This document shows, piece by piece, positions 1 through 35,084 of a DNA stretch of 35,527 bases; positions within the stretch are counted from its first letter, which is position 1; each line of letters starts with the position of its first letter. This DNA is from a virus. Lineage: Duplodnaviria > Heunggongvirae > Uroviricota > Caudoviricetes. The position numbers were made by a program, and so were the translations under genes. The notes under the pieces were generated by a model. It did no database searches. It worked only from the letters and a program-made list of their open reading frames with translations, and was not told the DNA's origin. The stretch is from the IMG/VR virus record IMGVR_UViG_2734482778_000013, positions 1 to 35,527 of that record. One strand, 5' to 3'.

Positions 1-993
1 CTAATCGATGGACAGTTTATGGACACTTTCAGCCAGCGGATTAAAGTTGATCGCGTCCTGTAAGAAATCCGGCGAAAAATGAGCGTACGTCATTGTCTGC
101 TGAATCGTGGCGTGCCCCAGGATTCGTTGCAACGTAACAATATTTCCGCCATTCATCATAAAGTGTGTGGCAAATGTATGACGCATGACATGCGTAGCCT
201 GCCCCTTCGGCAAATCCGGTTTCACCTCCTGAAGAATCTCCCGGAACTTCAGATAATCAACCTGATACAACAACCCCGTTCGACGGGTTTTAATCAGAGG
301 CACAACCGAATCCGCCACAGGAACCGAACGGGATTTTCCGTTTTTGGTGTTAAAGAACGTCACCCGGTTGCCAACGATATGCTCTCCACGTAGTTCTGAT
401 GCTTCACTCCATCGGGCACCAGTAGAAAGACACAGAATGGCAACACGACGCGCATCCCCCTCCAGTCGCTCAAGAAGCCGCTCAATCTCATCATCAGAAA
501 GAAAGGCCATCTCTGTGTTCTGAACTTTCAGTTTACGTATACCGCGTACAGGGTTCGCGTTGTGAAAGACCTCAGCTTCAATCAGCACCGTGAACATGGT
601 AGACAGAACGCATAAATCACGATTAATACTGGACGGCATTAATCCGGCCTGTAATTTCTCTGACCGATATTCAAGCATAAATTTTCGCGTCATCTGACTG
701 GCGCGAGGATCTCCCATTTCACGAATAACCTTCCCTAGCCTGACCCTGTAGCTATCCCCGTAAGCCTGATTACGCCCGTCAAGCATCCACCACGCATCAA
801 GCAGCTCTGATAATCGCCGCTGATCAGCTGGCTTAGCCTGCCATGGCTTGTCATGGAAGTTCTGTAACACATACTTCTCAAACTCCTGAGCCTTTGATTT
901 CAGGGTAAAGGTTTTCCGAATCCGCTTTCCTTCCGCCCCCTGAGGTCTGACATCAACCCGATAACGTCCGTCTTTGAGTTGCTTAATCGACAT
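1..993 (-). CDS. int: Phage tyrosine integrase (P2/186 Int-like); ATG at 993 preferred over track TTG at 1008
   Basis: ORF ends with stop at 1-3; N-terminus MSIKQLKDGRYRVDVRP resembles P2-family Int N-termini; C-terminal tyrosine-recombinase signature (HTFATHFMMNGG...LGHATIQQTMTYAHF); GGAGG RBS 8 nt upstream of ATG 993. Confidence 0.9.
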   Translation of the reverse strand: MSIKQLKDGRYRVDVRPQGAEGKRIRKTFTLKSKAQEFEKYVLQNFHDKPWQAKPADQRRLSELLDAWWMLDGRNQAYGDSYRVRLGKVIREMGDPRASQMTRKFMLEYRSEKLQAGLMPSSINRDLCVLSTMFTVLIEAEVFHNANPVRGIRKLKVQNTEMAFLSDDEIERLLERLEGDARRVAILCLSTGARWSEASELRGEHIVGNRVTFFNTKNGKSRSVPVADSVVPLIKTRRTGLLYQVDYLKFREILQEVKPDLPKGQATHVMRHTFATHFMMNGGNIVTLQRILGHATIQQTMTYAHFSPDFLQDAINFNPLAESVHKLSID

Positions 994-1062
994 GATTAGC
1001 CCCTCCAACGGATAAATTAACTAAACACTCCTTGCGAGATGTAATTCGCTCAATGTGTAAAG

Positions 1063-1395
1063 TCAGCCAACATTGCGGCCTGATCGGGGTGATTTTTGGG
1101 TAATGCCGATTGAAGCCTGATCGTCCTCCGACTGAATGGAGCCATCAAGAGAGAGAGCCGGAGCAACCTGCCCGGCAGCGGGAAATGTTTTGTCGTGAAG
1201 TATCCACATAGTGTATTTTTCGAATCGCTCGACTTGGATTACTTTTTCTACAACCTCAATTCGCGCAGGTTTATATCCAGACTCATAATTTCCTATAGTC
1301 CCTACAGAAACCCCCGTTACTTGCGAAAACTGAGATTGGGTAAGTTTTTCCGCATTTCTGATCGCCTTTAGTTTTTTGGCATAATCTCTTGACAT
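1063..1395 (-). CDS. C: P2 C-type immunity repressor (XRE-family HTH)
   Basis: HTH segment LTQSQFSQVTGVSVGTIGNYESG; C-terminal FEKYTMW...GQVAPAL resembles P2 C as recalled; divergent from early operon; alternative start at 1404. Confidence 0.8.
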   Translation of the reverse strand: MSRDYAKKLKAIRNAEKLTQSQFSQVTGVSVGTIGNYESGYKPARIEVVEKVIQVERFEKYTMWILHDKTFPAAGQVAPALSLDGSIQSEDDQASIGITQKSPRSGRNVG

Positions 1396-1507
1396 GTTCA
1401 CCATACGATGAGTATCCTCTCTTCATTCTTCACCACAAGGTGAAGTAAACAAACCAAAACAAACCATCACAAGGCGCGACAAGCGCACCAACGCAAGAGG
1501 ATAACAA
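1396..1507. promoter_or_regulatory. Divergent repressor/early promoter-operator region with tandem direct repeat and inverted repeat
   Basis: Tandem 10-bp repeat AAACAAACCA at 1447-1456 and 1457-1466; 7-bp-arm palindrome CTTCACC-ACAA-GGTGAAG at 1425-1442; lies between divergently transcribed C and cox-like genes. Confidence 0.5.
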
Positions 1508-2932: not shown

Positions 2933-3331
2933 ATGGCTAAAACCCGGCACAAATTCGCAACAGCAGCAGGATATTTTTGTATGAAGCAACGACGTAATTC
3001 TTCACAGCAACGCTTCCGCAACGGGGCGGAGCGCCATGCTAACCGTTTCGCTACCAGTGCATCACGCAGCAACATCCGCTACAGCCTGAGTGATACACAC
3101 GCAACGCCGGATGGCCACGCTGTAAAACAAATCGGCGAGCATACCTGGCTGATTGAGAAGGCTGGAATCGTGGTTCACAGATGCCCACGCAATCCGTTTA
3201 CTGGAAACCGCATTTTTGCTCTAAGCAGCGGCGACAATCAGTTCGGGCAGGATTTCACATTATACGAAGCGCTTCGCACGGTTGATCGTCTGCTGCGTGG
3301 ACAGAGTTTTATTAAACAGACTGATTTATAA
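2933..3331 (+). CDS. Hypothetical protein (alternative start at 2981)
   Basis: 132-aa ORF; no recognised domain. Confidence 0.4.
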   Translation: MAKTRHKFATAAGYFCMKQRRNSSQQRFRNGAERHANRFATSASRSNIRYSLSDTHATPDGHAVKQIGEHTWLIEKAGIVVHRCPRNPFTGNRIFALSSGDNQFGQDFTLYEALRTVDRLLRGQSFIKQTDL

Positions 3332-7347: not shown

Positions 7348-10170
7348 ATGACGGCAGAGTACATCAGGGACTGGCAACAACCGCGCCACGCAGTGGGGCG
7401 TGAAGGAACGGGGATCCCCGCTCCTGAATCCGCGCTTTCCTCCTGGCTGGATGCCTACCGGGTAGAGAACGAGCGCCGCCAGGAAATGGCTGATGCGGCG
7501 TTCTCCGCCACGCCGCTGGGCAACCTGATTAATAAAAGCCTGGACGCACAGGAAAAACAGGACAAAACCATCACACTGGCAGGAGACGCCAGAAAACAGG
7601 CACGCGGCGCGGTGGATGAAGCCATGGCCTCGCTGCGCCTGCTGCCGTCCTATCTGCGCGATCCGCTTATTCGCCACCTCTCCTTCCTGCGCAAAAAACA
7701 GGAAGCCGATCGCCGGAAAGGCAAAAAGAGCTGGCAGGCAGAACGCTATGCACGCGGAACCCTGCGCAAGATATTCGATCGCATTAACCGTGCCGACAGT
7801 CGCTGGCTGACACCGGGTTATCGCTCCCTCGCCGGACGTGAACGCCTGGATGATTTGCTTTACCTGCCGCAGCTCAACAAACACCAGATACAGACGCTGG
7901 CCACCATGACGGCGGCGATGTTCAGCAGCACCTTCGAAAAACTCTGCGATGGCTTTGGCGCGACCGATGGCGAGCTGACCATGGATGTAACCCTGAAGGC
8001 GTATCAGATGCTGGCCCGCATGGCGTTACACCTGCACGCCATGCCTCCACATTATGACGCACTGACAACAGACAAAGACCGGAGGAACGAACCGGACACG
8101 GAGCTGCTGCCGGGCGCAATCCTTCGCCTGACCTGTGCGGAATGGTGGAAACGCAAACTGTGGCTGTTACGTTGCGAGTGGAGAGAAGAACAACTCCGCG
8201 CCGCCTGTCTGGTTTCCAGAAAAACATCACCCTATCTGAGCCAGGACGCGTTAAGCGAGTTTCGCGCACAGCGCGAGAAAACACGCGATTTCCTGAAAAG
8301 TTTCATGCTGGAAAATGAAGACGGGTTCACGATTGATCTCGAGACGGTGTATTACGCGGGAGTAAGTAACCCGGTTCACCGTAAGGCAGAAATGATGGCC
8401 ACCATGAAGGGGCTGGAACTTCTGGTCGAAGCCCGTGGCGACAAAGCGGTGTTTCTGACTGTCACCTGCCCGTCAAAATACCACGCCACAACGGAGAACG
8501 GTCATCCGAATCCCAAATGGAACGGGGCCACAATGCGCGACTCCAGCGATTACCTGGTTAACACGTTTTTTGCGGCGGTCCGCAAGAAACTGAATCGCGA
8601 CGGCCTGCGCTGGTATGGCATCCGCACGGTGGAGCCTCACCATGACGGCACAGTGCACTGGCATATGATGGTCTTTGCACATCCGGAAGAAATCGACAGC
8701 ATCGTGGCCATCACCCGCGATATTGCCATTCAGGAAGACCGCCACGAGCTGGGCAATGATATTACTCCGCGCTTTAAGGTGGAGTATGTCGACGGCTCAA
8801 AAGGCACACCGACCAGCTATATCGCCACCTACATCGGAAAAAACCTGGACAGCCGCGCCGTGGATGGCATCGACCCGAAAACGGGCAAGCCACGCGTTGA
8901 CCACGAAACCGGAAAATCAATGGCCGAGAGCGTGGAGCGCGCCATCGGCTGGGCGCGCCTTCACCGCGTCCGCCAGTTCCAGTTCTTTGGCATCCCCTCC
9001 CGTCAGGTGTGGCGTGAACTGCGCCGCCTCGCCAGCCAGATGGCACGCAACCCGGAAGGCCCGCAACGGCTGAAGGATGACGCAATGGATGCGGTTCTTG
9101 CTGCCGCTGATGCCGGGTGTTTTGCCTCCTACATTGAAAAACAGGGTGGCGTACTTGTTCCACGCAAGGACTACCTGATTCGCACCGCCTACGACCTCGC
9201 AGATGAGCTGAACGATTACGGCGAGCAGGGCGTACAGATTTACGGGATCTGGTCACCACTCATCGGGGAATCCTCCCGTGTGTGCACGCATCCGGATAAC
9301 TGGAAGCTGGTAAGACGCAAACCGGAAGCGGAAGACAGCGCCCGCGAAAATGGTTTTGACCTTCAGGGCGGCCCTGCCGCCCCTTGGACTCGTGGCAATA
9401 ACTGTCCCCGTGTACAGGAAACAGGCAACAACGGGACAGAACAGCCGGAAGAACGGCCAGCACCGTGGCCGCAGATTCCTGACGGCGTTGAAGTGAATGA
9501 ATGGATGCGCTCACTGAAACGGCACGAACGCCGGGCGCTGATGCGTTCGCTTCGTGACAAACAGGCAAAAAACAGCAGTGATGAAATGCAAAGCTGGACA
9601 CAGAGCCGCAAACAGCAGCGGCCTTTGCCTGATAACCACGAATTACTCGCTAAAGAATGGCGGGAGTCTGCTGAATCTCTCGGCCTGCATATTGGTGAAC
9701 AGCAGATGCAGCACCTGTTACGGGGCGGCAGTCTGTACGTTGACGGCAGCATCATTGCACCGCAGGGATTTGAAATTGTACGCAAACCGGATACCCGCCC
9801 GGACAGCCGAATCACGCAGCTCTGGCAGCGCCTGAGCCGTAATCACGGCGTAAGCAGCACGGAGATCCGCCATAACCCGGCCGCCAGCTATCTGGAACAG
9901 CTGGGGGCATCAGACCCCGAAGCCGCCGCACGTCTGGCATCCACACTTCAGCAGGACCAGAACACCATGAAAACCCCCGTTACCGTGCTTTCTGACATGC
10001 TGCGCGCCATCCGCGACGCAGAGCATGCACAGAGAATCAGTGAAACCACTGAACGCGCCCGCCGCAAAGCAGACCTGCTGCGGGGTGGCCTGACAAGTGG
10101 AAACAAAAAACAGACAGAAACGGGATTCACAAATCCCGTAAATGAGCAAAAAACGCGCCGCGATATATGA
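7348..10170 (+). CDS. A: Rolling-circle replication initiator endonuclease (P2 gpA family), with long C-terminal extension
   Basis: HUH motif VHWHMMVFAHPEE and paired catalytic tyrosines YIATYIGKN; 940 aa (longer than P2 gpA); position after early operon. Confidence 0.85.
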   Translation: MTAEYIRDWQQPRHAVGREGTGIPAPESALSSWLDAYRVENERRQEMADAAFSATPLGNLINKSLDAQEKQDKTITLAGDARKQARGAVDEAMASLRLLPSYLRDPLIRHLSFLRKKQEADRRKGKKSWQAERYARGTLRKIFDRINRADSRWLTPGYRSLAGRERLDDLLYLPQLNKHQIQTLATMTAAMFSSTFEKLCDGFGATDGELTMDVTLKAYQMLARMALHLHAMPPHYDALTTDKDRRNEPDTELLPGAILRLTCAEWWKRKLWLLRCEWREEQLRAACLVSRKTSPYLSQDALSEFRAQREKTRDFLKSFMLENEDGFTIDLETVYYAGVSNPVHRKAEMMATMKGLELLVEARGDKAVFLTVTCPSKYHATTENGHPNPKWNGATMRDSSDYLVNTFFAAVRKKLNRDGLRWYGIRTVEPHHDGTVHWHMMVFAHPEEIDSIVAITRDIAIQEDRHELGNDITPRFKVEYVDGSKGTPTSYIATYIGKNLDSRAVDGIDPKTGKPRVDHETGKSMAESVERAIGWARLHRVRQFQFFGIPSRQVWRELRRLASQMARNPEGPQRLKDDAMDAVLAAADAGCFASYIEKQGGVLVPRKDYLIRTAYDLADELNDYGEQGVQIYGIWSPLIGESSRVCTHPDNWKLVRRKPEAEDSARENGFDLQGGPAAPWTRGNNCPRVQETGNNGTEQPEERPAPWPQIPDGVEVNEWMRSLKRHERRALMRSLRDKQAKNSSDEMQSWTQSRKQQRPLPDNHELLAKEWRESAESLGLHIGEQQMQHLLRGGSLYVDGSIIAPQGFEIVRKPDTRPDSRITQLWQRLSRNHGVSSTEIRHNPAASYLEQLGASDPEAAARLASTLQQDQNTMKTPVTVLSDMLRAIRDAEHAQRISETTERARRKADLLRGGLTSGNKKQTETGFTNPVNEQKTRRDI

Positions 10171-10246: not shown

Positions 10247-11206
10247 ATGAAAATTTGTATCGACGACGGCTCCACCAACATCAAGCTGGCATGGACTGAG
10301 AACGGCGAACGCCGCAACGCCATCAGCCCGAACAGCTTCAAGTCGGAATGGTCTGCGCCGTTCGGTGGCACGCAGCCCGCGAACTACATGCTTGATGGTG
10401 TGCGCTATGGTTTTGATCCGGTCAGCGATCGCTTTGTCCAGACGACCGACACGCAATACCAGTACAGCGATGTGAATGTCATTGCCATTCATCACGCGCT
10501 GGTCAAATCAGGCATCACGCCACAGGAGGTGGATGTGGTTGTCACCCTGCCACTGAGCGAGTATTTCGACACAAACGCACAGCCGGACATGGCCAACATC
10601 AACCGCAAAAAAGCGAACGTCATGCGCCCGGTGGAGTACCAGAACGGCGAAGCATTCACTATCCGTAACGTACGGGTTATGCCTGAATCCATTCCGGCTG
10701 GCTTTAAAGCACTGGCCGACATGAGTCCGTTTGAATCCCTGCTGATTGTGGATTTGGGCGGAACCACGCTGGATGTGGCAAAGGTTCAGGGGCAGCTGGC
10801 AGGTATCAGCCAGGTGTTTTGCGATCCACACGTAGGCGTTTCTCTGATGGCCGATGCCGTGCTGTCGGTGATGGCCACCAACGGTATGCGCACCAGTCAC
10901 CACATCGCCAATACCATTATCGAACATCGCCACGATGAAGCCTGGCTGCGCCAGCACATCCACAATGACGCGCATTACGCCAGCCTGATGGCAGTTATTC
11001 GTGAAAAGGAAGAAACACTGAAACAACGCGTGATCCGCGCGCTGGCGGGTTTTTCGGGTTACGGGCGGGTGATGGTTGTAGGTGGAGGAGCGGAGATTGT
11101 GGCACCCGCTATCTGCGAAGCCTGCGGAGTTAATGCGACTTTCATCGCGGACGGGGTGCCACAGTTTGCTCTGGTTAATGGGCTGTACGCAATGGACCAG
11201 GAGTAA
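10247..11206 (+). CDS. parM: ParM/StbA-family actin-like segregation ATPase
   Basis: Strong resemblance along the whole length to plasmid R1 ParM as recalled (IDDGSTNIKL..., YSDVNV..HHAL, VMPESIPAG, LIIDLGGTTLD, GGGAE, LVNG); AAGGAAAAG RBS. Confidence 0.85.
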   Translation: MKICIDDGSTNIKLAWTENGERRNAISPNSFKSEWSAPFGGTQPANYMLDGVRYGFDPVSDRFVQTTDTQYQYSDVNVIAIHHALVKSGITPQEVDVVVTLPLSEYFDTNAQPDMANINRKKANVMRPVEYQNGEAFTIRNVRVMPESIPAGFKALADMSPFESLLIVDLGGTTLDVAKVQGQLAGISQVFCDPHVGVSLMADAVLSVMATNGMRTSHHIANTIIEHRHDEAWLRQHIHNDAHYASLMAVIREKEETLKQRVIRALAGFSGYGRVMVVGGGAEIVAPAICEACGVNATFIADGVPQFALVNGLYAMDQE

Positions 11207-11210
11207 ATCA

Positions 11211-11525
11211 ATGACGACACCAACCAGACGGATAAGTTTCTATCTGAAGCCCACCGTCGTCAAGAGCGAACGGGAGGCGTGCAGTTACCTCGACAGCCTG
11301 CCAGCCTCCGAACGCAGCCGCGCACAACGCGCGGCTTTTCTGGCCGGACTGGCTCTTATAAAACGCACCCCCGCGTTGGCGTATTCGCTGGCAGAATGGT
11401 CAGAAGACGAAATACGGATGCCACCGCTACCAGTACAGCCTGAAAAACCGGCGCAACCAGCAGCAGACAGCGCCCCCCATATGCAGCAGGTGAAAAAGAA
11501 TATTCAGGCGTTTTTCCCGAAGTGA
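11211..11525 (+). CDS. parR: ParR/StbB-family centromere-binding adaptor
   Basis: N-terminal RHH-like region ISFYLKPTVVKSEREACSYLDSLPASERSRAQRAAFLAGLAL parallels R1 ParR as recalled; GGAG RBS; directly downstream of parM. Confidence 0.75.
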   Translation: MTTPTRRISFYLKPTVVKSEREACSYLDSLPASERSRAQRAAFLAGLALIKRTPALAYSLAEWSEDEIRMPPLPVQPEKPAQPAADSAPHMQQVKKNIQAFFPK

Positions 11526-11539
11526 AAACAGGAGTAACT

Positions 11540-11827
11540 ATGTCCACCATTACCAAAGAATGGTTACAACGTAAAATCACAGAGTTTAAATCGTGGCGCG
11601 AAGACATCCCGTTCGGTCTTGATGAAGACGATCACAATATGTTAATCGCACTGGAAATCGCACTTGCATCACTGGAAGCAGAGCCAGTGGCATGGATGCA
11701 CGCAAATAATCCTATTGGAATACCGGCGATAACAAGAAGTAAAGATGTTGCAGACAGCTGGCGCTCTAAGGGATGGAATGTATTGCCTCTTTATTCACTG
11801 ACCCGCTCCATCAATTTATGCCATTAA
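11540..11827 (+). CDS. Hypothetical protein (AT-rich cargo)
   Basis: 95-aa ORF from ATG 11540 with AGGAG RBS; track start 11522 is an upstream GTG. Confidence 0.5.
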   Translation: MSTITKEWLQRKITEFKSWREDIPFGLDEDDHNMLIALEIALASLEAEPVAWMHANNPIGIPAITRSKDVADSWRSKGWNVLPLYSLTRSINLCH

Positions 11828-11838
11828 TGGAAGTAATC

Positions 11839-12198
11839 ATGATGAAAGATAATTCCGGAAGCCAGCGTGCATCAGTTGCAGTTATGGTAATGATTAAATT
11901 TGTGAAACAGTACACCGGAAAGCCAATCTCGCTCCGGCAATTAAGCAAAGAAACCGTTTCACTGTCATATCTGGAGCAAATATTCAGATATTTACGGGAA
12001 AGTAGCCTGGTAAAAGCCACACGCGGCCCGGGTGGTGGATATATCCCAACAAAAGAAAATTACAGTGTTGGTGATATTGTCCGGGCAATGAAGTGTTCCG
12101 GATTATATACACAGCACGTTATTCTGGCTGCACTGGATAATATTTCTTTAACCAGCCTGCAGGAAGACACAAATTATCAGTTGTCTGCCATTAAATAA
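11839..12198 (+). CDS. Rrf2-family (IscR/NsrR-like) transcriptional regulator
   Basis: Rrf2 HTH signature ISLRQLSKETVSLSYLEQIFRYLRESSLVKATRGPGGGY; lacks the 3-Cys cluster ligands; low-GC region; GGAAG RBS before ATG 11839. Confidence 0.7.
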   Translation: MMKDNSGSQRASVAVMVMIKFVKQYTGKPISLRQLSKETVSLSYLEQIFRYLRESSLVKATRGPGGGYIPTKENYSVGDIVRAMKCSGLYTQHVILAALDNISLTSLQEDTNYQLSAIK

Positions 12199-12252
12199 GA
12201 AAACCCGGAACGGGTGCGCAAATTCTTTGTGCGCCCGTTCCGGGTTGGACAA
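12199..12252 (-). terminator. Long hairpin terminator downstream of ogr-like gene
   Basis: AACCCGGAACGGGTGCGCAAA-TTC-TTTGTGCGCCCGTTCCGGGTT, about 21-bp stem allowing G-U pairs; on the minus strand it is followed by TTTTCTTATTT. Confidence 0.55.
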
Positions 12253-12266
12253 GCGAAGCGCGTCAG

Positions 12267-12524
12267 CTATCCGGCCTGCAACAACTCCAGAGCCATTTGT
12301 TTTTCTTCCGGACGCATCCGCTCAATCAACAGCTTTAACACACCATTCTCCAGCCCGCTGGGCACCAGTGTGTGCGAGTAGGTCAGATTCATCACCCAGG
12401 TATGTCCGCACTCGAGACGGGTGCAACGGTAATACACATCAGCAAACTGATCGGTTTTCCAGGCTGTTTTCTCAATCACTGCATGTGCACCGCAGCAATG
12501 ACATCGCGCTTTCTGTCTGCGCAT
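12267..12524 (-). CDS. ogr: Ogr/Delta-family zinc-finger late-gene transcriptional activator
   Basis: C-x2-C-x22-C-x4-C arrangement (RCHCC...YYRCTRLECGHTW) matching P2 Ogr spacing as recalled; strong RBS GGGAGG before ATG at 12524; longer ORF-track start at 12593 rejected. Confidence 0.7.
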   Translation of the reverse strand: MRRQKARCHCCGAHAVIEKTAWKTDQFADVYYRCTRLECGHTWVMNLTYSHTLVPSGLENGVLKLLIERMRPEEKQMALELLQAG

Positions 12525-12589: not shown

Positions 12590-13624
12590 TCACTCCATGG
12601 GTTCATCAAAATCAAGAATAAATTTCACCTCCCCCAGTCGTCTGATATCCGGGTCGCTGTTGATCCCCTCCATAATCAGGCGGCGCATCGGGATAACCTC
12701 ATCCCTGTAATATGCCTCGCGGGATTTCAGTGGGTCACCAAGCCCGGCCGTATTTGCGGGAATGATGCCGGCAAGTCCGGGTGGGAAACGGTGCGCAACG
12801 AGCTGATCCTGGGCACTGATGGTTTTTATATTCAGGAACTCATCTTTTGTACCTGAATCCCCGATAGGGATCACCTTAACGCCTTCTTTGTCTCCGCCCG
12901 GTATATTGATAAACATGGATTTAAAGTTGCCCGCCCCTTTTGACGCCTCTATCTTTTTACGGAATTCCGCCTCGAGCTCGGGATCCATGTCCGGGTCAGT
13001 GGAATACAGGATATAACCAAGATGTGCGCCGTTCTTGTAATACTTGCGGCGAAAGCGGGTGGCATCCACATTCAGCATGGCAGATTCCATCCCGTGAATA
13101 TAATCCGGGACACCGTAAACCTGCTGTTGTGGGTCATAAATTGCCACGAACACCACTTCGCCTGGCGGGTAAACGAGATCTTCCAGTGCCGCCTGCACAA
13201 TCACCGTGCCACCTTCGTTGTTGCGCCGCAGGTACAGAGAAGGCAACGTATGCAGGCGCACCACCCGCCCGAAGCCATTGCGCACTTTAAGCAGCCCCAT
13301 ATCCCCGAATATCAGCAGATTGGTCACCGCTGCCGCCATGGCGGCGTGTGTCATACCACCACCACCCCGAAAACCCTGCATGATCATATTGACGCGCGCA
13401 CGCAATACCGCGCCGTGATACGGTGCGATATTGGCCAACATAGCGAGATCCATGCGCTCAATGGGCGGCGTGTACCAGCCGTTATAGCCATCCCAGAGCG
13501 AGCCGTAATAACAGCCCCATGCAGCGACTGGTTCCGGGTCACCAAATTCAATAAACGTCATTTTGCTGGCTGTTTTTTTTGCCACGCCATCGTGTAGCAC
13601 GGGGGATTTTTTCTTTTTACTCAT
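12590..13624 (-). CDS. Q: Portal protein (P2 gpQ-like)
   Basis: 344 aa, same length as P2 Q; 8-nt overlap with terminase gene; synteny Q-P | O-N-M-L. Confidence 0.9.
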   Translation of the reverse strand: MSKKKKSPVLHDGVAKKTASKMTFIEFGDPEPVAAWGCYYGSLWDGYNGWYTPPIERMDLAMLANIAPYHGAVLRARVNMIMQGFRGGGGMTHAAMAAAVTNLLIFGDMGLLKVRNGFGRVVRLHTLPSLYLRRNNEGGTVIVQAALEDLVYPPGEVVFVAIYDPQQQVYGVPDYIHGMESAMLNVDATRFRRKYYKNGAHLGYILYSTDPDMDPELEAEFRKKIEASKGAGNFKSMFINIPGGDKEGVKVIPIGDSGTKDEFLNIKTISAQDQLVAHRFPPGLAGIIPANTAGLGDPLKSREAYYRDEVIPMRRLIMEGINSDPDIRRLGEVKFILDFDEPME

Positions 13625-15404
13625 CTGACAGGATCCATGTTGATTTGCGCTTGTGCTTATAGTTCAGAGGTTCATTACTTGCGGCATGAGCTATGGCAAA
13701 GAAGATGTCAGCGTGCCCGGTTTCTTCGCTGCGTTCGGCGGTGAAAGTGACTTTATTGCCACTGTTAGTGGACTCCTGACGAATGGCCAGGAACGATGCC
13801 GGAATATCTGTGGCTTCTTCATCCCACTCAATACGGTTGGCGTAAATCAGATCCAGCATCTTCATCACCAGGCGGTTTTTGGATTCAACGCTGTAATGAA
13901 TGGCCACTGTTTCACGGCGGGCAAATCCCTGGACCAGCTCAAAGACACCGTAGCCAAGACCGGTGACGTCAATGCCGATAAATGTCATGTTATAGCGCGC
14001 CTTAATGCTGCGGATACGCTCTGCCATAAACTGGAATGACATGCTGCGCCAGTGGTGTTTTTCCAGCACGCGGAATCGTTCTGCCGCAACCAGCGGCGGT
14101 GCCAGTACCACAAACGTGGCGTTATCGCCGGAGCGCGCAGGGTCAAAGCCACCCCACACCTCACAGTTACCAAATGGCATGGGCTCTTCCGGGTGAAAGT
14201 CCTCCCACGTACTGACATCAACACCACAGCGCACAAGGTCATCAAATTTAAAGACGCTCTCTTTGTCGTCCACAAACACGCACATAAACAGCATATTGAA
14301 CGCTGTTTCGTTGTACCGTTCGCGCAGCTCGTTGATGTCAGCAAGGTTAAAGCCGCCGGCAATGGCATCTTCCAGCGTAACCACATAGCGCCACTGACCA
14401 TCCGGGCATTCGCGCCCGCCATCGCGCAGCTCATCAAAGGACGGAAACTCAACCCCTTTTCGTTTCGGATCGCCTTTGCGCCATTCATCGCCAGACCAGA
14501 ACGGATAGCCCTGATGGGTTTTGGTTGACGGCGTGGAGAAGTAGGTAATGCGCCAGTGCGAGTGGGTGGCCATACCGGACGCCACTTCATTGAGGCGACG
14601 AAAGCCGGGGATCCACAGATATTCGTCAATGTACAGGTGGCCGCTGTTTGACTGCGCCGTGTTACTGTTGGTCGCCAGAAAATACAGTTCAGCCAGATTA
14701 CTTAACTTAACCGGGTTGCCTTTAATGGGAATGCCAAATTCCGTCTGTGCAATCTTAACGATATAGGTGCGGAACACTTCGGCCTGACGTTTTGATGCCG
14801 ATAAAAATATCTGTGTGTCGCCGGTTAATACCGCATCTTCAAATGCCTCAAACGCGAAGTAATACGTCGCCCCAATCTGGCGCGATTTAAGCAGGTTGCG
14901 TACACGACGGAATTTGTTTTCACGCAGGTGCAACTGATAAGCGAACAGTTTTTTGGTAAACGGCTCAAAACTTTCAGCAGTCAGCCCGGAAACGTCATTA
15001 GCTTTACGGGGGCGCTCTTTCTTACCTGCACCTTTTTCTCCGCGTTCTTCTTTTCCATAACGACCAGGCTGAGGAATGTCCGCCCCCATTCGTGCAATCT
15101 CAGCCATTCGCTCCGTGTGCTTGTTTCTGACCGACATCAGTTTGACGTGGTGGCCAATCAGGCGATCGAGTTCATCGTGTTCTTCCGGCGTTTTATGGTC
15201 ACGCTCCGCCAGTACAGCGAGACGCCGGGCGATGACATCCTCCACGCCCTCAGTATTAAGCTGTGTGTACCACTCAAACTTTGTCGCCCAGTAATAAACA
15301 ATTCGTGGGCTGTTCAGTCCGAGCTTCTTTTGTATTTCTTTTGGGGTGTGCCTTTTCAGATAGAGTGATTTTGCTGCGGCAATAACTTCATCAGAATAAG
15401 CCAT
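13617..15404 (-). CDS. P: Terminase large subunit (P2 gpP-like)
   Basis: 595 aa; position and overlap with Q; divergent from O. Confidence 0.9.
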   Translation of the reverse strand: MAYSDEVIAAAKSLYLKRHTPKEIQKKLGLNSPRIVYYWATKFEWYTQLNTEGVEDVIARRLAVLAERDHKTPEEHDELDRLIGHHVKLMSVRNKHTERMAEIARMGADIPQPGRYGKEERGEKGAGKKERPRKANDVSGLTAESFEPFTKKLFAYQLHLRENKFRRVRNLLKSRQIGATYYFAFEAFEDAVLTGDTQIFLSASKRQAEVFRTYIVKIAQTEFGIPIKGNPVKLSNLAELYFLATNSNTAQSNSGHLYIDEYLWIPGFRRLNEVASGMATHSHWRITYFSTPSTKTHQGYPFWSGDEWRKGDPKRKGVEFPSFDELRDGGRECPDGQWRYVVTLEDAIAGGFNLADINELRERYNETAFNMLFMCVFVDDKESVFKFDDLVRCGVDVSTWEDFHPEEPMPFGNCEVWGGFDPARSGDNATFVVLAPPLVAAERFRVLEKHHWRSMSFQFMAERIRSIKARYNMTFIGIDVTGLGYGVFELVQGFARRETVAIHYSVESKNRLVMKMLDLIYANRIEWDEEATDIPASFLAIRQESTNSGNKVTFTAERSEETGHADIFFAIAHAASNEPLNYKHKRKSTWILSDE

Positions 15405-15634
15405 AAACTACCTGTGGAATTTATTTTAATGGGTTTTCACCTTTTTTCGGTTCGTTCCGTAACGTTCCGTAATATCCCATTATTTGCCGCAGGCATTTTT
15501 TTAACGATTATCTGTTTTCGGTATTTTTCGGATATATGCGCATATCCGAAAGTACCGGAAATTAATCAGGTGACGGCTTTTTTATTTCCCACTTAAATAA
15601 CGCTCAGTTAATTTTTATCAGCGGGTTAATTCAG
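15405..15634. promoter_or_regulatory. Divergent late promoter region (P and O operons) with perfect 24-bp palindrome and tandem repeat
   Basis: Perfect palindrome TTCGGATATATGCGCATATCCGAA at 15527-15550; tandem CGTTCCGTAA x2 at 15452-15471; AT-rich. Confidence 0.55.
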
Positions 15635-16525
15635 ATGTCGAAACTGAAAACAGACTGGGTGGTCGTAGCCACTTCAGGCCCCACCATCGACGGTCGGGAA
15701 ATTGATCCAAAGTGGCTGACGGATGCCGCCGAGGTTTATAACCCGGACGAACACACTGCCATGCTCTGGCCGTTTCATGCCAGCGCCGGCTGGCGTGCTT
15801 TCACCAATAACTATGGTCTTGTTGATGCACTGAAGGCAGAAAAAGTCGGTGATAAAGTGCAACTGAAAGCCCGCCTGATACCCAACCGCTTTCTGACCGA
15901 AGCCAACGAGGCCGGACAAAAACTTTTCACCTCCATAGAGGTAAAGGAAAACTACCTGGGGACAGGCAAATTCTTTGTATCCGGCATCGCCGTGACTGAC
16001 ACACCGGCCAGCATCAACACCACCCGCCTGCAATTTTCGCAGGGAGATTCCATTCACATGGGTAATGCGGAAGAACTGAATTTCACGCTGCAGTCTGACG
16101 ACGAGCAGGCCAAACGCAGTTTCTTTTCCGGTCTTTTCTCCATGGGACGCGACAAACAGGAAAACGATATGAACGAAAAGCAGTTCGACCAGTTGATGGA
16201 CGCCATCAACAAAACCGGCGAACGTCTGGGCAAACTGGAAGAAAACGTCGCGCAGTTCAGCGCGAAGGATGCCCCGAAAGATACCAATAATAACAAGCCG
16301 GAAGGCAGCACCGGCGATCAGGGGCAGAACAACGCAGAACAGAACAACAAGGACGAGAAAACCTTCACGCTGACTACCGAGCAGGGCGAAAAGCTGTTCT
16401 CCACAGTGAACGCCATCGCGGAGAAGGTTACCAGTATGGAAACCGCATTTGCTGAACTCAGCAAGGACGCCACGAAGCTGCCGGGCAACAATCCGGCCGG
16501 TGGCGAAACTTTTAACCTGGTGTAA
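15635..16525 (+). CDS. O: Capsid scaffolding protein (P2 gpO-like)
   Basis: 296 aa; acidic, low-complexity C-terminal half; synteny. Confidence 0.85.
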   Translation: MSKLKTDWVVVATSGPTIDGREIDPKWLTDAAEVYNPDEHTAMLWPFHASAGWRAFTNNYGLVDALKAEKVGDKVQLKARLIPNRFLTEANEAGQKLFTSIEVKENYLGTGKFFVSGIAVTDTPASINTTRLQFSQGDSIHMGNAEELNFTLQSDDEQAKRSFFSGLFSMGRDKQENDMNEKQFDQLMDAINKTGERLGKLEENVAQFSAKDAPKDTNNNKPEGSTGDQGQNNAEQNNKDEKTFTLTTEQGEKLFSTVNAIAEKVTSMETAFAELSKDATKLPGNNPAGGETFNLV

Positions 16526-16539
16526 CCGGAGAGAACGCA

Positions 16540-17553
16540 ATGAACATGACACCAGAAGCACAAAAGCTGGTTAATCAGTACATCAGCGAACTGCAAAAAA
16601 CATTCAGTGACTGCGGGAAATCAAGCGATCGTTTCTTTTCGCTGACCGAGCCACGCAGTATTGCTCTGCGTAAAGCCCTGCTGGAAAGCACGGAATTTCT
16701 GAATTTCACCACCTGCATGGATGTTCCGCACCCGCAGGGGCAGGTCGTCACCGTGGGCGAATCCACGCTGCGCACCGGTCGCGTGAAAAGCGGTCGTTTC
16801 GCCAAAGGTTCTGGCATCAAAGGCAACGAATTCAAACTCGTTGAAACTGATTCCTGCTGTGTGATCACCTGGGAACAACTCGCCATCTGGGCGAATGCCG
16901 GCAGCCCACAGGAATTTTTCAACCTGATGAACTCCGCCGCCGTCACCAACTTTGCGCTGGATATGCTGCGCATCGGCTTTAACGGTAAAACAGCCGCAGA
17001 AAACTCCGATCCTGAAAGTAACCCGAACGGTGAAGACGTCAACATCGGCTGGCATGAAATCGCCAGAAAGTGGGGAGAACAGCCCGGCAATACCTCCCGC
17101 ATCCTGACAGATGCCGTTACCCTGGGCGAAGGCGGTGATTATGTCGGCCTTGATGCCATGGCCTCAGACCTGATCCGCACTTACATCCCGGCGCAGTATC
17201 ACAACGATCCTCGCCTTACCGTGCTGGTTGGCGCAGATCTTGTGGCTGCTGAAGAACTGCGCCTCTACAACAAAGAGGACAAGCCTACCGAAAAAGTGGC
17301 CGCACAGTTGCTGACGAAGAACATCGCAGGCCGCAAGGCCATCATTCCGCCGTTTATGCCGGGCAAGCGTATGGTAGTGACCATGCTGCCAAACCTGCAG
17401 ATCCTGACGCTGAAGGGGTCCCGCCGTCGTAAGGCAGAAGATGTGGGCGATCGCAAACAGTTCGAAAACTCATACTGGCGTTATGAGGGGTACGCCCTGG
17501 GCGATCCGGATTTATATGCTGCCGTGGATGAGTCTGCGGTCACCATCGCCTGA
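16540..17553 (+). CDS. N: Major capsid protein (P2 gpN-like)
   Basis: 337 aa; GGAG RBS; synteny after scaffold. Confidence 0.9.
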   Translation: MNMTPEAQKLVNQYISELQKTFSDCGKSSDRFFSLTEPRSIALRKALLESTEFLNFTTCMDVPHPQGQVVTVGESTLRTGRVKSGRFAKGSGIKGNEFKLVETDSCCVITWEQLAIWANAGSPQEFFNLMNSAAVTNFALDMLRIGFNGKTAAENSDPESNPNGEDVNIGWHEIARKWGEQPGNTSRILTDAVTLGEGGDYVGLDAMASDLIRTYIPAQYHNDPRLTVLVGADLVAAEELRLYNKEDKPTEKVAAQLLTKNIAGRKAIIPPFMPGKRMVVTMLPNLQILTLKGSRRRKAEDVGDRKQFENSYWRYEGYALGDPDLYAAVDESAVTIA

Positions 17554-17570
17554 TAAACGGAGCGCACGGT

Positions 17571-18281
17571 ATGCCAACGCCAATGCAGCGACAACGTGCC
17601 CGACAGATGGATGAGCGCCGTGCAGCACTCATGACCAGAACGGACGGGAGCGCCGTCAGTACAGAGAGCCAGCACATTAAGCTGCTGGCACTGGATAACG
17701 ACATCAGACAACTGCACAACATGGAGCTGCTGTCTGACAAGCTGGAATTCAAGCGGAACACGCTGCTGCCCCGCTGGCTGCCACACGCACAGGCTTATCT
17801 GGAGGGGGAACGCGTCTATCAGAATCCCATTCTGGTGTACTGCATCATCTGGCTGTTCGATACCGGGCAGTTTGAGCTGGCGCTGCGGTGGACTGACATT
17901 GCCATTGAGCAGGGACAGAAGACGCCGGAGAACTTCAAAAGCGAGCTGCCAACGTTTGTGGCCCATTTCATTCTTGAATGGGCAGAAACCGAAGCTGAAC
18001 GCGGGAACAGTATCGCGCCATATTTTCAGCAGGTGTTTGAAAACATCCGTGACAAATGGCGCGTGAATGAACGCCTTGCTGCCCGCTACTGGCGCTTTGC
18101 AGGCGTCCTGCTGTTGCGCGGCGATGACGGTAAACCGCTGGCCAGTGCAATTAACGATCCGGAGAGACTGCAACAGGCCGACCAGTGTCTGGAACAGGCT
18201 GCCTGGCTGCATCCAAAAATTCAGGTGAAAACCCTGCGCCAGCGCATTGCCGCAAGACTGCGCGCGTTGCAGGGCACGTAA
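17571..18281 (+). CDS. M: Terminase small (endonuclease) subunit (P2 gpM-like)
   Basis: 236 aa; synteny after capsid gene. Confidence 0.8.
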   Translation: MPTPMQRQRARQMDERRAALMTRTDGSAVSTESQHIKLLALDNDIRQLHNMELLSDKLEFKRNTLLPRWLPHAQAYLEGERVYQNPILVYCIIWLFDTGQFELALRWTDIAIEQGQKTPENFKSELPTFVAHFILEWAETEAERGNSIAPYFQQVFENIRDKWRVNERLAARYWRFAGVLLLRGDDGKPLASAINDPERLQQADQCLEQAAWLHPKIQVKTLRQRIAARLRALQGT

Positions 18282-22438: not shown

Positions 22439-22445
22439 TTTTACG

Positions 22446-22480
22446 CTTAATAAGCCTTCCTGCAGGCTTATTAAGCCCTC
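22446..22480 (+). terminator. Hairpin after endolysin gene (possible terminator)
   Basis: 11-bp perfect stem CTTAATAAGCC / GGCTTATTAAG followed by a T-rich tract. Confidence 0.4.
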
Positions 22481-22984: not shown

Positions 22985-25080
22985 TGTCACAACAGCGCCT
23001 TGAATTACTTCTTGAACTGACAGACCGCCTGACAAGGCCGTTGCGTGCAGCCGGGCGACAGGTTCAGGGATTTGCTGCAACAAGTCGGGGAGCCTTTCGG
23101 GACATTGCTACCGGGGGCGCTGCGCTTTGGGGAGTGGGGGCAGCCATTCAGGGGGCACTGATGCCAGCCATTGAAATGGACAGGGCGCTCGGTGAGGTGA
23201 AATCACTGGGCGTCGCAGAGTCCGGATTGCGTAAACTCAGCCGCGCCGCCGTTGATTTCACTATGGAATACGGCGGGGCTGCGCAGGATTTTGTGCGTGC
23301 TTCTTACGACATCCAGTCAGCCATTGCCGGGTTAACTGACGATGAGCTGTCCCGCTTCACCACCGCATCAGCAACGGTGGCAGCAGCAACCAAATCCAGC
23401 AGCCAGACCATTACCGCCTACATGGGCACCATGTACGGCATCTTTAAAGACCAGGCTGATGCCATGGGAAAAAGCAAATGGGTGGAGCAGGTCGCCGGGC
23501 AAACCGCCACCGCCGTACAAATGTTTAAAACAACCGGCGATAACATGTCAGCGGCGTTCACCACGCTGGGTGCCAGTGCAAAAGCGGCCGGTATTGATGC
23601 GGCTGAACAGTTCGCCGTGCTGGGACAACTGCAGGCCACCATGAGTGGCAGCGAGGCCGGGACAAAGTACAAGGCATTTCTTGCCGCAGTAGGCAGCGCC
23701 CAGAAAAAGCTGGGGCTTAATTTCGTGAATAAAGACGGCACGATGAAAAGTGTTGTCGAGATCATGAAACTTATCAGGGGTAAATTTGGTGATCTGTCAA
23801 AAGTGGCTGATTCCGATTTGCTGAAAAGCGCCTTTGGCTCCGATGAAGCTGTGGCCATGATTAAATTACTCAATGCGGACATTGGCGGACTGGAAAAGAA
23901 TATCGCCACGCTGGGCAATATCAAAGGTATGGATAAGGCTGTCGAAATGGCACAAGCCATGGCCGATCCGTGGGAACAGGCCGCTGCTATTATTAACGGC
24001 ATTCGCATTGAAATTGGCACACAACTGTTGCCCGTTCTGTATCCATTCATCCAGAAAAGCAACGAAGGCGGTAAATCCTTTGTTGCCTGGTTGCGTCTGT
24101 ATCCAAACATCACACGTGCAATCGGCTTATTAAGCGCGGCACTTATTGGTGTTGCGGCGGTTGGCGCAACGGTCAATATCGTAATGGGGGTGGCGAAATT
24201 TATCTGGGTGGGATTACGCATAGTCTGGATGGCCGCAATCGCACCACTGAAATTAATCATCTTTCTGTATCGCGCCCTGAAAGTGGTTATGCTGGCGTTC
24301 TGTGCTACTGCCCGCATGGTCAGGGCATTATATCTGGCGATGAGTATCGCCATGGGGGCGCACAATGTCAGGGCCAAAATTCAGATTGCACTGCTGAAAC
24401 TGCAACGCGTCGGTATGTGGCTTTATTCTGCCGCACTGGGCGCTGCAGCTGTGGCCATGAAAATTTATACCGCTGTTACCGGTGGCGCAGCCGTTGCCAC
24501 TCAGCTACTTTTCAGCCCGATAACGTTAATCATCCTGGCACTGGCTGCGCTGGGCGTGGGCATTTATTTTCTGATTACCCGCTGGGATGAGATCAAAGCT
24601 GCACTGATGGATACAGCCGCTTTTCAGTGGGTAACCAGTGTCATAAAAAATATAGCTGTATGGTTCGGAAATACCTGGAAAGGCATTAAAAGCGGCTGGG
24701 ATGCCGTTATTAATTATTTTTCCACCCGCTCACCACTGGAAATATTTCAGGATTATGTCCGTCTGATTAATAAATTATTTTCAGGACTATGGCGCACAAT
24801 TATCGGTATGTTCAGCTCAGCATTCAGATGGATTGCTGACAAGCTGAATATGCTCCCGGGTATAAATATTGATGTACCAGAAATTACAGATAATAGTGAG
24901 GGTTCTGTATTAACCGGTGGAAAAGTCATTAGCGCCGGGCCAGGTGGCATTGCGGCAAAAATGCAAAATAACAGCGACAGCCAGACCACAATTGATAACT
25001 CCCGTCGCGTGGTCAATGTCAATGTGCAGGATGCGTCCCCGGCCCACCTTAATGAATGGATGGAGCTGCATGCATACTGA
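22984..25080 (+). CDS. Tail tape measure protein
   Basis: 698 aa; Ala/Gly-rich with hydrophobic central segments; follows chaperone frameshift pair. Confidence 0.85.
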   Translation: MSQQRLELLLELTDRLTRPLRAAGRQVQGFAATSRGAFRDIATGGAALWGVGAAIQGALMPAIEMDRALGEVKSLGVAESGLRKLSRAAVDFTMEYGGAAQDFVRASYDIQSAIAGLTDDELSRFTTASATVAAATKSSSQTITAYMGTMYGIFKDQADAMGKSKWVEQVAGQTATAVQMFKTTGDNMSAAFTTLGASAKAAGIDAAEQFAVLGQLQATMSGSEAGTKYKAFLAAVGSAQKKLGLNFVNKDGTMKSVVEIMKLIRGKFGDLSKVADSDLLKSAFGSDEAVAMIKLLNADIGGLEKNIATLGNIKGMDKAVEMAQAMADPWEQAAAIINGIRIEIGTQLLPVLYPFIQKSNEGGKSFVAWLRLYPNITRAIGLLSAALIGVAAVGATVNIVMGVAKFIWVGLRIVWMAAIAPLKLIIFLYRALKVVMLAFCATARMVRALYLAMSIAMGAHNVRAKIQIALLKLQRVGMWLYSAALGAAAVAMKIYTAVTGGAAVATQLLFSPITLIILALAALGVGIYFLITRWDEIKAALMDTAAFQWVTSVIKNIAVWFGNTWKGIKSGWDAVINYFSTRSPLEIFQDYVRLINKLFSGLWRTIIGMFSSAFRWIADKLNMLPGINIDVPEITDNSEGSVLTGGKVISAGPGGIAAKMQNNSDSQTTIDNSRRVVNVNVQDASPAHLNEWMELHAY

Positions 25081-34025: not shown

Positions 34026-34064
34026 ACACCAGACATAAAAGCCACATAAACGCCCCATCACGCA

Positions 34065-34090
34065 ACGCACGGTCCCGGCCGTGCGTTTTC
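34065..34090 (+). terminator. Rho-independent terminator after tail module
   Basis: Stem ACGCACGG / CCGTGCGT with 6-nt loop followed by TTTT. Confidence 0.55.
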
Positions 34091-34750
34091 CTATCCACCA
34101 CCTGATTAATGCGTTCTGCGTGCCATTCTGGCGCTGTATGCACACACTGCGTAAACGGTGTGACGTAAAGCGTGAGGTGACGTAAACCGCGCTACCCCCT
34201 CCAACCCGCGGGTTTTGTGTCGAAACACTTTTTCAGTTTTCTGCCGTGCAAAAATGACCGCCAGCCCGCGCAGCAACTGAGGGAAAAGCGAAGATCTGAA
34301 ATTTCACGCTTTGAAATTTTTTGCAGTTTTCAGAGTGGTTTTTACGATCGAATAAATGGCAGGAGAAAGAAAACAGACTGATATTAAAAGAGTTTTTATG
34401 CTTTACGTGAGACGAGAAACGATCACGAAAGGATCGCATCAAAAAATCGTCAAACAACGAAGCCAGACGCGGCGCGGCCTGCGTAAAATTAAGAGTCAAA
34501 ATTAAACTGAAAAAAGGATCAATACAGTGCATCGATCGCACATGACGATCTACGCAGCAACAGGACAAAAAAACCGGCGCGAACGCCGGCGGAAGCATGT
34601 ATCAAATGCGTGACTGAATAATGTCTGCGGTCGGGAATTTTATATCAAAAGGCTGACAGGCCTCAACGGATTGAAACAAGGGAAAAAACCAGGCTAGAAT
34701 TCGCGCGGGTGCCTTTCGGCTGATGGCTGGAGGGTAAACCCGAAGGCCGG

Positions 34751-34990
34751 ATGTGGAAAGGCCCCGAGTCAACTTTAACGTTAACCCGAGGCCCTAGCCA
34801 TACAACCTTCGCAAGTCGTAGGTTAGCGCCTCTCCGAAAAAGGAGCAAGTGCTATGTCGCAAAAATCGCTAATCGCCATCACCACACTGTGCGTGACGGC
34901 AATCCTCATCATCTGGATGTTGCAGGGTTCGCTCTGCGAGATACGGATGAGCTTCTGGGGAGCGGAGTTTGCGGCGTTCTTACAGTGTAA
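34751..34990 (+). CDS. mok: mok-like overlapping reading frame of hok locus
   Basis: 79-codon ORF starting about 100 nt upstream of the hok-like ORF in a different frame and ending 7 nt before its stop. Confidence 0.4.
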   Translation: MWKGPESTLTLTRGPSHTTFASRRLAPLRKRSKCYVAKIANRHHHTVRDGNPHHLDVAGFALRDTDELLGSGVCGVLTV

Positions 34991-34997
34991 ACCGTAA
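34854..34997 (+). CDS. hok: Hok/Gef-family type I toxin (47 aa)
   Basis: Translation MSQKSLIAITTLCVTAILIIWMLQGSLCEIRMSFWGAEFAAFLQCKP: TM helix followed by SLCEIR...AAF motif as in R1 Hok; GGAG RBS; below ORF-track cutoff. Confidence 0.75.
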   Translation: MSQKSLIAITTLCVTAILIIWMLQGSLCEIRMSFWGAEFAAFLQCKP

Positions 34998-35006
34998 GGA
35001 AACCGC

Positions 35007-35028
35007 GACGGGGGAGCAATCCCCCGTC
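35007..35028 (+). other. Perfect 8-bp hairpin at hok mRNA 3' region (possible fold-back element)
   Basis: GACGGGGG-AGCAAT-CCCCCGTC located 10 nt after hok stop. Confidence 0.45.
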
Positions 35029-35084
35029 AATCGGTTGCCAGGGTAAGGCCGATAAGGCACCCCATCTCACAAACCTGAATGCAA

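Follow-up and report, generated by a model that had tools for sequence, protein, structure and literature searches.

A candidate Ogr-type operator with changed recognition bases between the divergent late genes of an HP1/K139/ESSI-2-type prophage

We analyzed a 35,527-bp stretch of DNA (IMG/VR record IMGVR_UViG_2734482778_000013; hereafter, the window), the whole of which is a P2-family prophage with the gene order of HP1, K139 and ESSI-2, unlike that of P2 itself. The element in question is an inverted repeat in the gap between the divergently transcribed genes for the large terminase (P) and the scaffold/protease (O), an arrangement that a first-pass annotation had read from the sequence and that is borne out by domain matches of both open reading frames (ORFs). 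Comparison with related phages indicates that this inverted repeat is probably the diverged operator of the phage's own Ogr-type activator, serving both late promoters, and that a tandem decamer in the same gap is a separate duplication in the leader of the P operon. The gap and the parts of the putative operator are as follows.

15405-15634: P-O intergenic gap, 230 bp
15517-15521: outer half-site on the left, P-proximal: TTCGG, 10 bp from the inner TTCGG on its upstream side
15526-15535 and 15542-15551: operator core, a perfect 10-bp inverted repeat (TTTCGGATAT / ATATCCGAAA) with the non-palindromic 6-bp spacer ATGCGC
15556-15560: outer half-site on the right, O-proximal: CGGAA, 10 bp from the inner CCGAA on its downstream side

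The 24-mer TTCGGATATATGCGCATATCCGAA, which the first-pass annotation had described as a perfect palindrome, was found at 15527-15550 as it had stated, but the symmetry is imperfect, in that the second half should be CATATATCCGAA and reads CGCATATCCGAA. The dyad axis of the inverted repeat lies at 15538.5, with the inner half-sites TTCGG at 15527-15531 and CCGAA at 15546-15550. The outer half-sites widen the dyad to 15515-15561, and this extended dyad folds as single-stranded DNA with -12.2 kcal/mol (z = -4.5 vs shuffles). A nested 12-bp palindrome (ATATGCGCATAT, 15534-15545), which sits 1 bp off the main axis, is not kept in relatives. When the 230-bp gap was simulated 5000 times with a first-order Markov model, only 29 of the simulated sequences (0.6%) contained an inverted repeat whose arms were 10 bp or longer and whose spacer did not exceed 10 bp. 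As the first-pass annotation had also noted, the classic Ogr pattern TGT-N12-ACA is absent from 15405-15634, the nearest occurrences being at 13219 and 16860.

No further copy of the palindrome was found in the window at up to 3 mismatches of 18, and no second copy of the core (N14 spacing, up to 2 mismatches of 10 bases) was found outside coding sequence in the window or in Vibrio phage K139, so that each of these genomes holds a single site. The K139 record annotates as late promoters only the divergent P16/P17 pair, plus a separate zinc-finger-gene promoter. Absence from other late promoters, which the first-pass annotation had taken as a reason to reject an operator, is thus not informative here, as a several-promoters test does not apply where the window and K139 hold one copy each. 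It appears that one site may serve the whole late region.

The site was next compared across related phages, beginning with a set of 23 IMG/VR relatives found through gpO, one of which (L004) stops short of the gap. The arms were kept in these relatives down to a lineage with a 79%-identical gpO (L019), and the most distant member (L022, 59% gpO identity) showed a single change in one arm. The central 6 bp, on the other hand, vary freely (ATGCGC, ATGCGT, ATACGC, ATACAC, ATGCAC, ATGTGC, TGCCCG, AACCCC, CGAGTT, TCGCGA and others). Identical arms around a free spacer were found in dozens of related phages, including E. coli-type relatives, Vibrio phage K139/VPUSM8 and beyond. In VPUSM8/K139, the core of the P-O gap reads TTCGGATAT-AACCCC-ATATCCGAA (K139 15489-15512). 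The core is also present in Yersinia phage vB_YenM_324 and Cronobacter phage ESSI-2, in both of which the left arm is relaxed, the ESSI-2 arms being asymmetric (TTCGGGAAA vs ATATCCGAA), and HP1 has a related array of 10-bp-phased GGATAT repeats. Half-sites vary among relatives (TATCCGAA vs TAACCGAA), as does the spacing (N13 vs N14), and in many relatives the arms would not pair with one another. Conserved arms around a free spacer of fixed length point to a site that is read by a symmetric protein rather than one that acts as an RNA or DNA hairpin.

By exact-pattern scanning of IMG/VR, 38 matches were obtained, of which 36 lay between divergent gpP and gpO homologues, even though best-hit protein identities at the exact-match loci dropped to 40% (P) and 31% (O). 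The two matches off this context (L030 5706-5729 and L036 3295-3318) come from one very AT-rich sequence that is shared by the two contigs and has no P2-like neighbours, and probably reflect chance or an unrelated element. Full-text literature searches (the motif; Ogr, K139 or HP1 late promoters) yielded no description of the operator, although an earlier one may exist.

Sequences were aligned on the inner half-site and clustered at below 80% mutual identity, giving 27 clusters on the O side and 22 on the P side. The resulting footprint, with positions counted outwards, and the corresponding promoters predicted in the window were as follows.

Inner half-site: (T)TATCCGAA on the O side and (T)TATCCGAA on the P side, the most information-rich element of the footprint
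Outer half-site, exactly 10 bp out (position 10-14): (c/a)(c/a)GAA on the O side, cCGAA on the P side
-35-like block, about position 24-30: GTGcgg on the O side, cGtTtt on the P side
-10 hexamer, position 47-52: AATAAT on the O side, CATAAT on the P side
15570-15598, plus strand: predicted P_O, with -35-like GTGACG (15570-15575), a 17-bp spacer and -10-like TTAAAT (15593-15598)
15479-15507, minus strand: predicted P_P, with -35-like TCGTTA (15502-15507) and -10-like AATAAT (15479-15484)

From these elements, transcription would start near 15605 (+) and 15472 (-). The conserved blocks are mirror-symmetric on the two sides, which places the dyad approximately 66 bp upstream of both predicted starts (about -66) and the two half-sites closest to each promoter around -57 and -47. 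Neither a consensus sigma-70 promoter nor a terminator was found in the P-O gap; the lack of a sigma-70 consensus is what would be expected of activator-dependent promoters. In lineages without the outer half-site (L031/L042 and L058), the -10-like hexamer was 10 bp nearer, at 44.5-45.5 bp from the dyad, which is the distance found in P2. The dyad lies 96.5 bp from the O start codon in the window and 84-103 bp from it (median 97) in 59 related spacers. On the other side, the terminase start codon was found 7 nucleotides (nt) past the conserved -10 block in K139 (L027, 15433-15500), ESSI-2 (L025, about 4330) and YenM_324 (L026, about 4768), whose P operons would consequently be leaderless. The start of the P gene in the ESSI-2 RefSeq record is annotated approximately 140 bp too far upstream, across the operator.

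The window encodes a protein of the family to which the P2 activator belongs.

12267-12524, minus strand: Ogr/Delta-family zinc-finger gene, 85 amino acids (aa), ATG at 12524, Shine-Dalgarno sequence GGAGG, CX2CX22CX4C, directly downstream of portal Q

The product matches Pfam PF04606 (E 1.4e-12; 47.8 bits vs a cut-off of 26.3), and its zinc-binding motif reads C-HC-C, 22 residues, C-TRLE-C. It is only 18% identical to P2 Ogr, consistent with a changed specificity, and carries a C-terminal extension of about 35 aa. No solved structure was found for the Ogr family, for which searches returned only weak zinc-ribbon similarity to Rpb9/TFIIS-type domains (E at least 0.017). At least 386 homologues are present in IMG/VR, and homologues with 42-48% identity are encoded directly downstream of Q in ESSI-2, YenM_324 and K139 (orf13). 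In HP1 (L028, NC_001697), an unannotated Ogr-like ORF was detected by tblastn at 10447-10650 (minus strand), between orf14 and portal Q (E 9e-9, about 30% identity).

The operator candidate and this Ogr subfamily were found to occur together. We identified 80 IMG/VR loci with K139-type Ogr proteins, 69 of which include P and O. All 59 distinct P-O spacers of normal length beside a K139-type Ogr gene contained TTCGG-N13/14-CCGAA (47 perfectly, 11 with one mismatch and one with two), at N14 in 42 cases and N13 in 17, when approximately 0.01 per spacer would be expected by chance according to our own calculation. Conversely, site-bearing loci that reach about 3 kb past P all carry an Ogr-like gene, with the exception of L058. 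Furthermore, the only non-structural ORFs of the window with homologues in both K139 and HP1 were those for the integrase, replication protein A and the Ogr-like protein, which by sequence comparison is the only regulator common to the three phages. Other regulators of the window were considered as binders and set aside. K139 and HP1, which have either the site itself or something very similar, yielded no homologue of the Rrf2-family regulator, and none of CI or Cox was detected there; without homologues, none of the three can be the shared binder of an operator whose sequence is the same in K139 as in the window, and the Rrf2 regulator would lie outside the late switch. Taken together, the position of the site, the conservation of its arms, its co-occurrence with one Ogr subfamily and the sole shared regulator strongly favor, at the level of sequence, the suggestion in the first-pass annotation that the palindrome is an Ogr-like operator of different specificity.

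From these comparisons we infer that the site is bound, by which protein, where transcription starts and that it is activated, and the model that emerges involves the following transcription units.

12590-15404, minus strand: leftward late operon P + Q, with the ogr-like gene next and no terminator between
12203-12215, minus strand: terminator-like hairpin past the ogr-like gene, part of a longer palindrome (12203-12262)
15635-18281, plus strand: start of the rightward late operon (O, N, M); same-strand head-completion and tail genes reach 34025

An upstream activating site of about 45 bp (15515-15561), dyad-symmetric and made up of four 10-bp-phased half-sites (TTCGG, TTCGG, CCGAA, CGGAA), would lie midway between two divergent late promoters with weak -35 elements. 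The Ogr/Delta protein would most likely bind it as an oligomer and, from about -66, recruit RNA polymerase to both promoters, with P_P driving the terminase, the portal and the ogr-like gene itself, and P_O driving the scaffold, the capsid and probably the remaining late genes. The extra outer half-site on each side would shift each promoter one helical turn outward relative to P2. Since the ogr-like gene follows Q without a terminator and the hairpin comes after it, positive feedback would be predicted once P_P fires. This hairpin is likely the end of the P-Q-ogr transcription unit. The longer palindrome to which it belongs (AACCCGGAACGGG...CCCGTTCCGGGTT) separates the Rrf2 gene from the ogr-like gene, which converges on it, and is probably a bidirectional terminator.

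Several observations weigh against this model. The argument is comparative throughout, and with one copy each in the window and K139 there is no within-genome comparison of several promoters such as P2 affords. The position of the dyad at -66 (-55 in P2) depends on -10 assignments that are weak in the window itself (TTAAAT). The L058 locus has the exact palindrome, yet no Ogr-like ORF was found in its 14 kb of sequence. In HP1, a related repeat array persists even though, judging by the alignment, its Ogr-like ORF seems to be missing the first of the Cys pairs that make up the zinc finger. Finally, no copy of TTCGG-N13/14-CCGAA was found in the whole contigs of the satellite-like 12-kb elements described below, which therefore give no independent confirmation, being without the site despite a close Ogr homologue.

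Given its dyad symmetry and free spacer, the site would also suit many host dimeric regulators, and a factor conserved in Escherichia, Vibrio and Haemophilus that couples late transcription to host physiology would explain both its conservation across phages of different host genera and its presence in L058, where no Ogr gene was detected nearby. We nevertheless consider a host factor unlikely. Among 185,579 species, each represented by one genome, the exact pattern had 16 matches, compared with approximately 9 expected by chance (our own calculation, assuming uniform composition), and the sole enteric and vibrio matches (E. albertii and V. cholerae) lay between prophage P and O genes, so that no host regulon with the site is visible. 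Moreover, the site is unlike the consensus sites of CRP, FNR, NagC/Mlc and GlpR, and its position coincides with that of the annotated Ogr site of P2.

A repressor operator or roadblock that silences both late promoters in the lysogen, with either a different phage protein or a negatively acting Ogr-like protein bound to it, appears quite improbable. The K139 annotation sets the -10 and -35 of P16 on the palindrome, where a bound protein would occlude the promoter; however, the K139-annotated hexamers miss the blocks that are conserved across the family, and those blocks lie outside and symmetric to the palindrome, which is the geometry of an upstream activating site. In addition, immunity proteins are wholly different among phages with identical arms (CI has 113 aa here and 215 aa in K139). 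It is very improbable indeed that the element is a DNA structure such as a cruciform, or serves another cis function in packaging or replication, rather than being bound by a transcription factor. The extended dyad does fold far better than its shuffles, as described above, but it is the arm sequence itself that is conserved, without compensatory changes that would preserve pairing, and the asymmetric arms of many relatives, such as those of ESSI-2, would not pair. By analogy with P2, the cos site would be expected on the far side of Q, and this reading as a whole would leave the symmetric promoter blocks unexplained.

The second repeat of the gap, the tandem decamer, is real, although its coordinates in the first-pass annotation (15452-15471) are one base off.

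15453-15472: tandem decamer, CGTTCCGTAA twice (on the P-coding strand, TTACGGAACG twice), covering roughly +1 to +20 of the leader predicted for the P operon

A role for it as an operator was not supported, as the module occurs only in some close relatives, in one or two copies, and lies downstream of the predicted P start. Two copies are present in the long form of the P-proximal module in the window and in L007, L009, L010, L012 and L015; the decamer is single-copy in L013/L046 and degenerate in L023/L053, and in other close relatives with the same operator the module is replaced by a shorter unrelated stretch. The decamer would form the first 20 nt or so of a predicted leader of 68 nt, compared with approximately 31 nt or none in relatives. 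We lean towards a slippage-type duplication within a lineage-specific insertion, with no dedicated function; the polymorphic copy number argues against strong constraint, and an 89-nt leader folded no better than its shuffles (z = -0.09), giving no indication of an RNA function.

The main alternative is that the decamer could supply accessory half-sites, extra and phased, through which the same activator would exert feedback downstream of the P_P start; a host response-regulator box is a further option, and we regard a function of either kind as rather unlikely. On the P-coding strand the leader reads TTACGGAACG TTACGGAACG AACCGAAAAA, that is, CGGAA, CGGAA and CCGAA at 10- and 9-bp steps, with these pentamers in the orientation of the P-side half-sites and each unit containing CGGAA, like the outer half-site. 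Perfect tandem repeats with units of 10 bp or more are improbable by chance (16 of the 5000 simulated gaps, 0.3%). However, phased motifs arise automatically from any tandem duplication and a 5-mer likeness in a random decamer is not rare; copy number differs among close relatives, some of which have the same operator and lack the module entirely, and no other good copy of the decamer was found in the window. The CpxR consensus is GTAAA-N5-GTAAA. The decamer resembles it in the form GTAAC-N5-GTAAT, but with 8 of 10 matches, a position downstream of the predicted start and a variable presence and copy number, it does not qualify as a CpxR-type box.

Also noted were integrative elements of approximately 12 kb, namely L164 (a whole IMG/VR contig of 12,061 bp), L166, L168, L171 and L088-L090. 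These share with the window the DNA at 31-954, 12270-12523, 34064-34330 and 34687-35067; their integrase gene is 87.6% and their Ogr/Delta gene about 84% identical to those of the window at the nucleotide level, and they contain a GGTTACA-repeat region. Their products include an AlpA-like protein, an 895-aa Toprim primase and a capsid protein of the P2 family with 45% identity to gpN of the window; judged by these genes, the elements look like capsid-encoding satellites of the window phage type. A broader scheme, in which the HP1/K139/ESSI-2 branch has its own late switch (a distinct Ogr subfamily oligomer on a four-half-site operator that turns on both late promoters) and the 12-kb satellites activate helper late genes in one direction only by way of this operator, is conceivable but doubtful.

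The remaining genes of the window, whose closest deposited phages are Yersinia vB_YenM_324, Cronobacter ESSI-2 and the Vibrio K139 group (65-70% nucleotide identity), are listed below. Prophages 88-95% identical to the window are present in 41 complete E. coli genomes and in E. albertii.

1-1008, minus strand: integrase
1063-1404, minus strand: CI-like helix-turn-helix repressor, 113 aa
Between the CI-like gene and replication protein A in the gene list: Cox-like ORF
7348-10170: replication protein A
10247-11525: ParM/StbB-like partition genes
11773-12198, plus strand: Rrf2-family regulator
12590-13624, minus strand: portal Q
13617-15404, minus strand: large terminase P, with Terminase_6N/6C and gpP-like Terminase_5 domains
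15635-16525, plus strand: GPO scaffold/protease O
16540-17553, plus strand: capsid N
17571-18281, plus strand: small terminase M
Up to 34025, all plus strand: head-completion, sheath, tube, lysis, tape-measure, baseplate and fibre genes

The stretch from replication gene A to the late region, which is the slot that tin/old occupy in P2, contains genes for an actin-like ParM and a StbB-like plasmid-partition protein, raising the possibility of a plasmid-like state or of stabilizing cargo. The Rrf2/IscR-family winged-helix regulator, convergent with the ogr-like gene, scored below the family-specific NCBIfam cut-offs. A near-palindrome (GCTTAATAAGC / GCTTATTAAGC) is present in two copies 21 bp apart at 22445-22476 (also at 24125-24135), between the endolysin-like and tail-assembly-chaperone genes, and the two copies jointly form a hairpin with a 12-bp stem. 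An element much like it lies upstream of the AlpA-like gene in the satellite-like L164 (about 1058-1095), and it could be an internal terminator, an attenuator or a second regulatory site. Just past the last tail gene is an ORF for a 47-aa Hok/Gef-family toxin (34854-34997, plus strand; Pfam PF01848, E 6.5e-7), which sits in mobile-element DNA rather than plain chromosome, since the flanking DNA is common to the satellite-like elements.

The way in which P2-like phages control their late genes is a textbook example both of regulation by a small zinc-finger activator and of cross-talk between helper and satellite (P2/P4), and to our knowledge has been worked out only for the TGT-N12-ACA group. 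Phages of the HP1/K139/ESSI-2 type often occur as prophages in Escherichia, Vibrio, Yersinia, Cronobacter and Haemophilus, and the records examined either leave their late promoters unannotated or list them as ordinary sigma-70 promoters. Four phased half-sites, fixed distances to the -10 and a matched activator subfamily amount to a directly testable model. A defined operator would let late promoters be annotated in hundreds of prophages, and would provide, from a single protein family, two naturally occurring activator/operator specificities that are orthogonal to each other. The mechanism is not of a new kind; it is the predicted operator that differs from that of P2, in its letters and in the number of half-sites.

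Small zinc-finger activators that turn on morphogenetic operons, as the window protein is proposed to do, include P4 Delta, 186 B and PSP3 Pag, which belong to the same Pfam family and cross-activate one another's TGT-N12-ACA promoters. These promoters have their site near -55 and depend on the RNA polymerase alpha subunit, Ogr-type sites in general being TGT-N12-ACA, with four such promoters in P2 (PMC3931495). The window site would be expected not to respond to P4 Delta, 186 B or PSP3 Pag. Promoters that respond to Delta are present in P4 itself, whereas no copy of the site was found in the 12-kb elements that have a K139-type Ogr gene. In the Stenotrophomonas P2-like phage Smp131, the predicted promoters PP' and PO' share one TGT-N12-ACA (PMC3931495). 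As here, one dyad was proposed for both divergent promoters; Smp131 differs in having the classical letters and further copies at other late operons (PMC3931495).

A further counterpart is K139/VPUSM8, in which the homologous region has an identical core (TTCGGATAT-N6-ATATCCGAA) and a zinc-finger gene, orf13, lies near Q. The K139 GenBank record gives only putative sigma-70-type hexamers for P16 and P17 and no activator site, and the -10 and -35 of P16 overlap the palindrome. The family-wide footprint instead assigns TATGAT as the -10 of the K139 P operon, 7 nt before the P start codon, unlike the annotated P16. The leaderless arrangement predicted for this operon, as for those of ESSI-2 and YenM_324, is annotated for the V operon in the P2 record.

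With respect to P2 itself, the RefSeq record (NC_001895) lists one 'activator binding site; pO, pP promoters' (3057-3087), flanked by the mapped starts 3016 (-) and 3127 (+); its centre is at -55/-56 relative to each start and 95 bp away from the O start codon. The window thus resembles P2 in that a single dyad-symmetric site, which would serve both promoters, lies in the corresponding location, flanked by the genes for terminase P and scaffold O and at nearly the same distance from the O codon (96.5 bp vs 95 bp), and in having predicted promoters without a good -35 and a phage-encoded CX2CX22CX4C zinc-finger protein. The layout is also shared, in that the annotated site of P2 pF (17555-17583) is GGTTG-N14-CAACC and that of the window family is TTCGG-N13/14-CCGAA, the same 5-N13/14-5 arrangement in other letters. 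In contrast, P2 has three sites for four promoters and the window one site per genome, and the activator gene lies next to attP in P2 but downstream of Q in the window, where it encodes the 18%-identical protein with the C-terminal extension. The window family also adds the outer half-sites 10 bp outside each inner one, and the predicted -10 begins 54.5 bp from the dyad compared with 44.5 bp in P2 pF, one helical turn further, the additional turn being filled by the outer half-site. The features that define Ogr/Delta systems were found in part: the window has an activator with CX2CX22CX4C and a PF04606 match and a dyad between P and O upstream of promoters with weak -35 elements, but the TGT-N12-ACA consensus and recurrence at every late operon (four promoters in P2) were not found in it. 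On this comparison of sequences, the element of the window is best described as the likely counterpart of the P2 Ogr site, with the P2-type recognition bases changed and, in most lineages, a pair of half-sites added.

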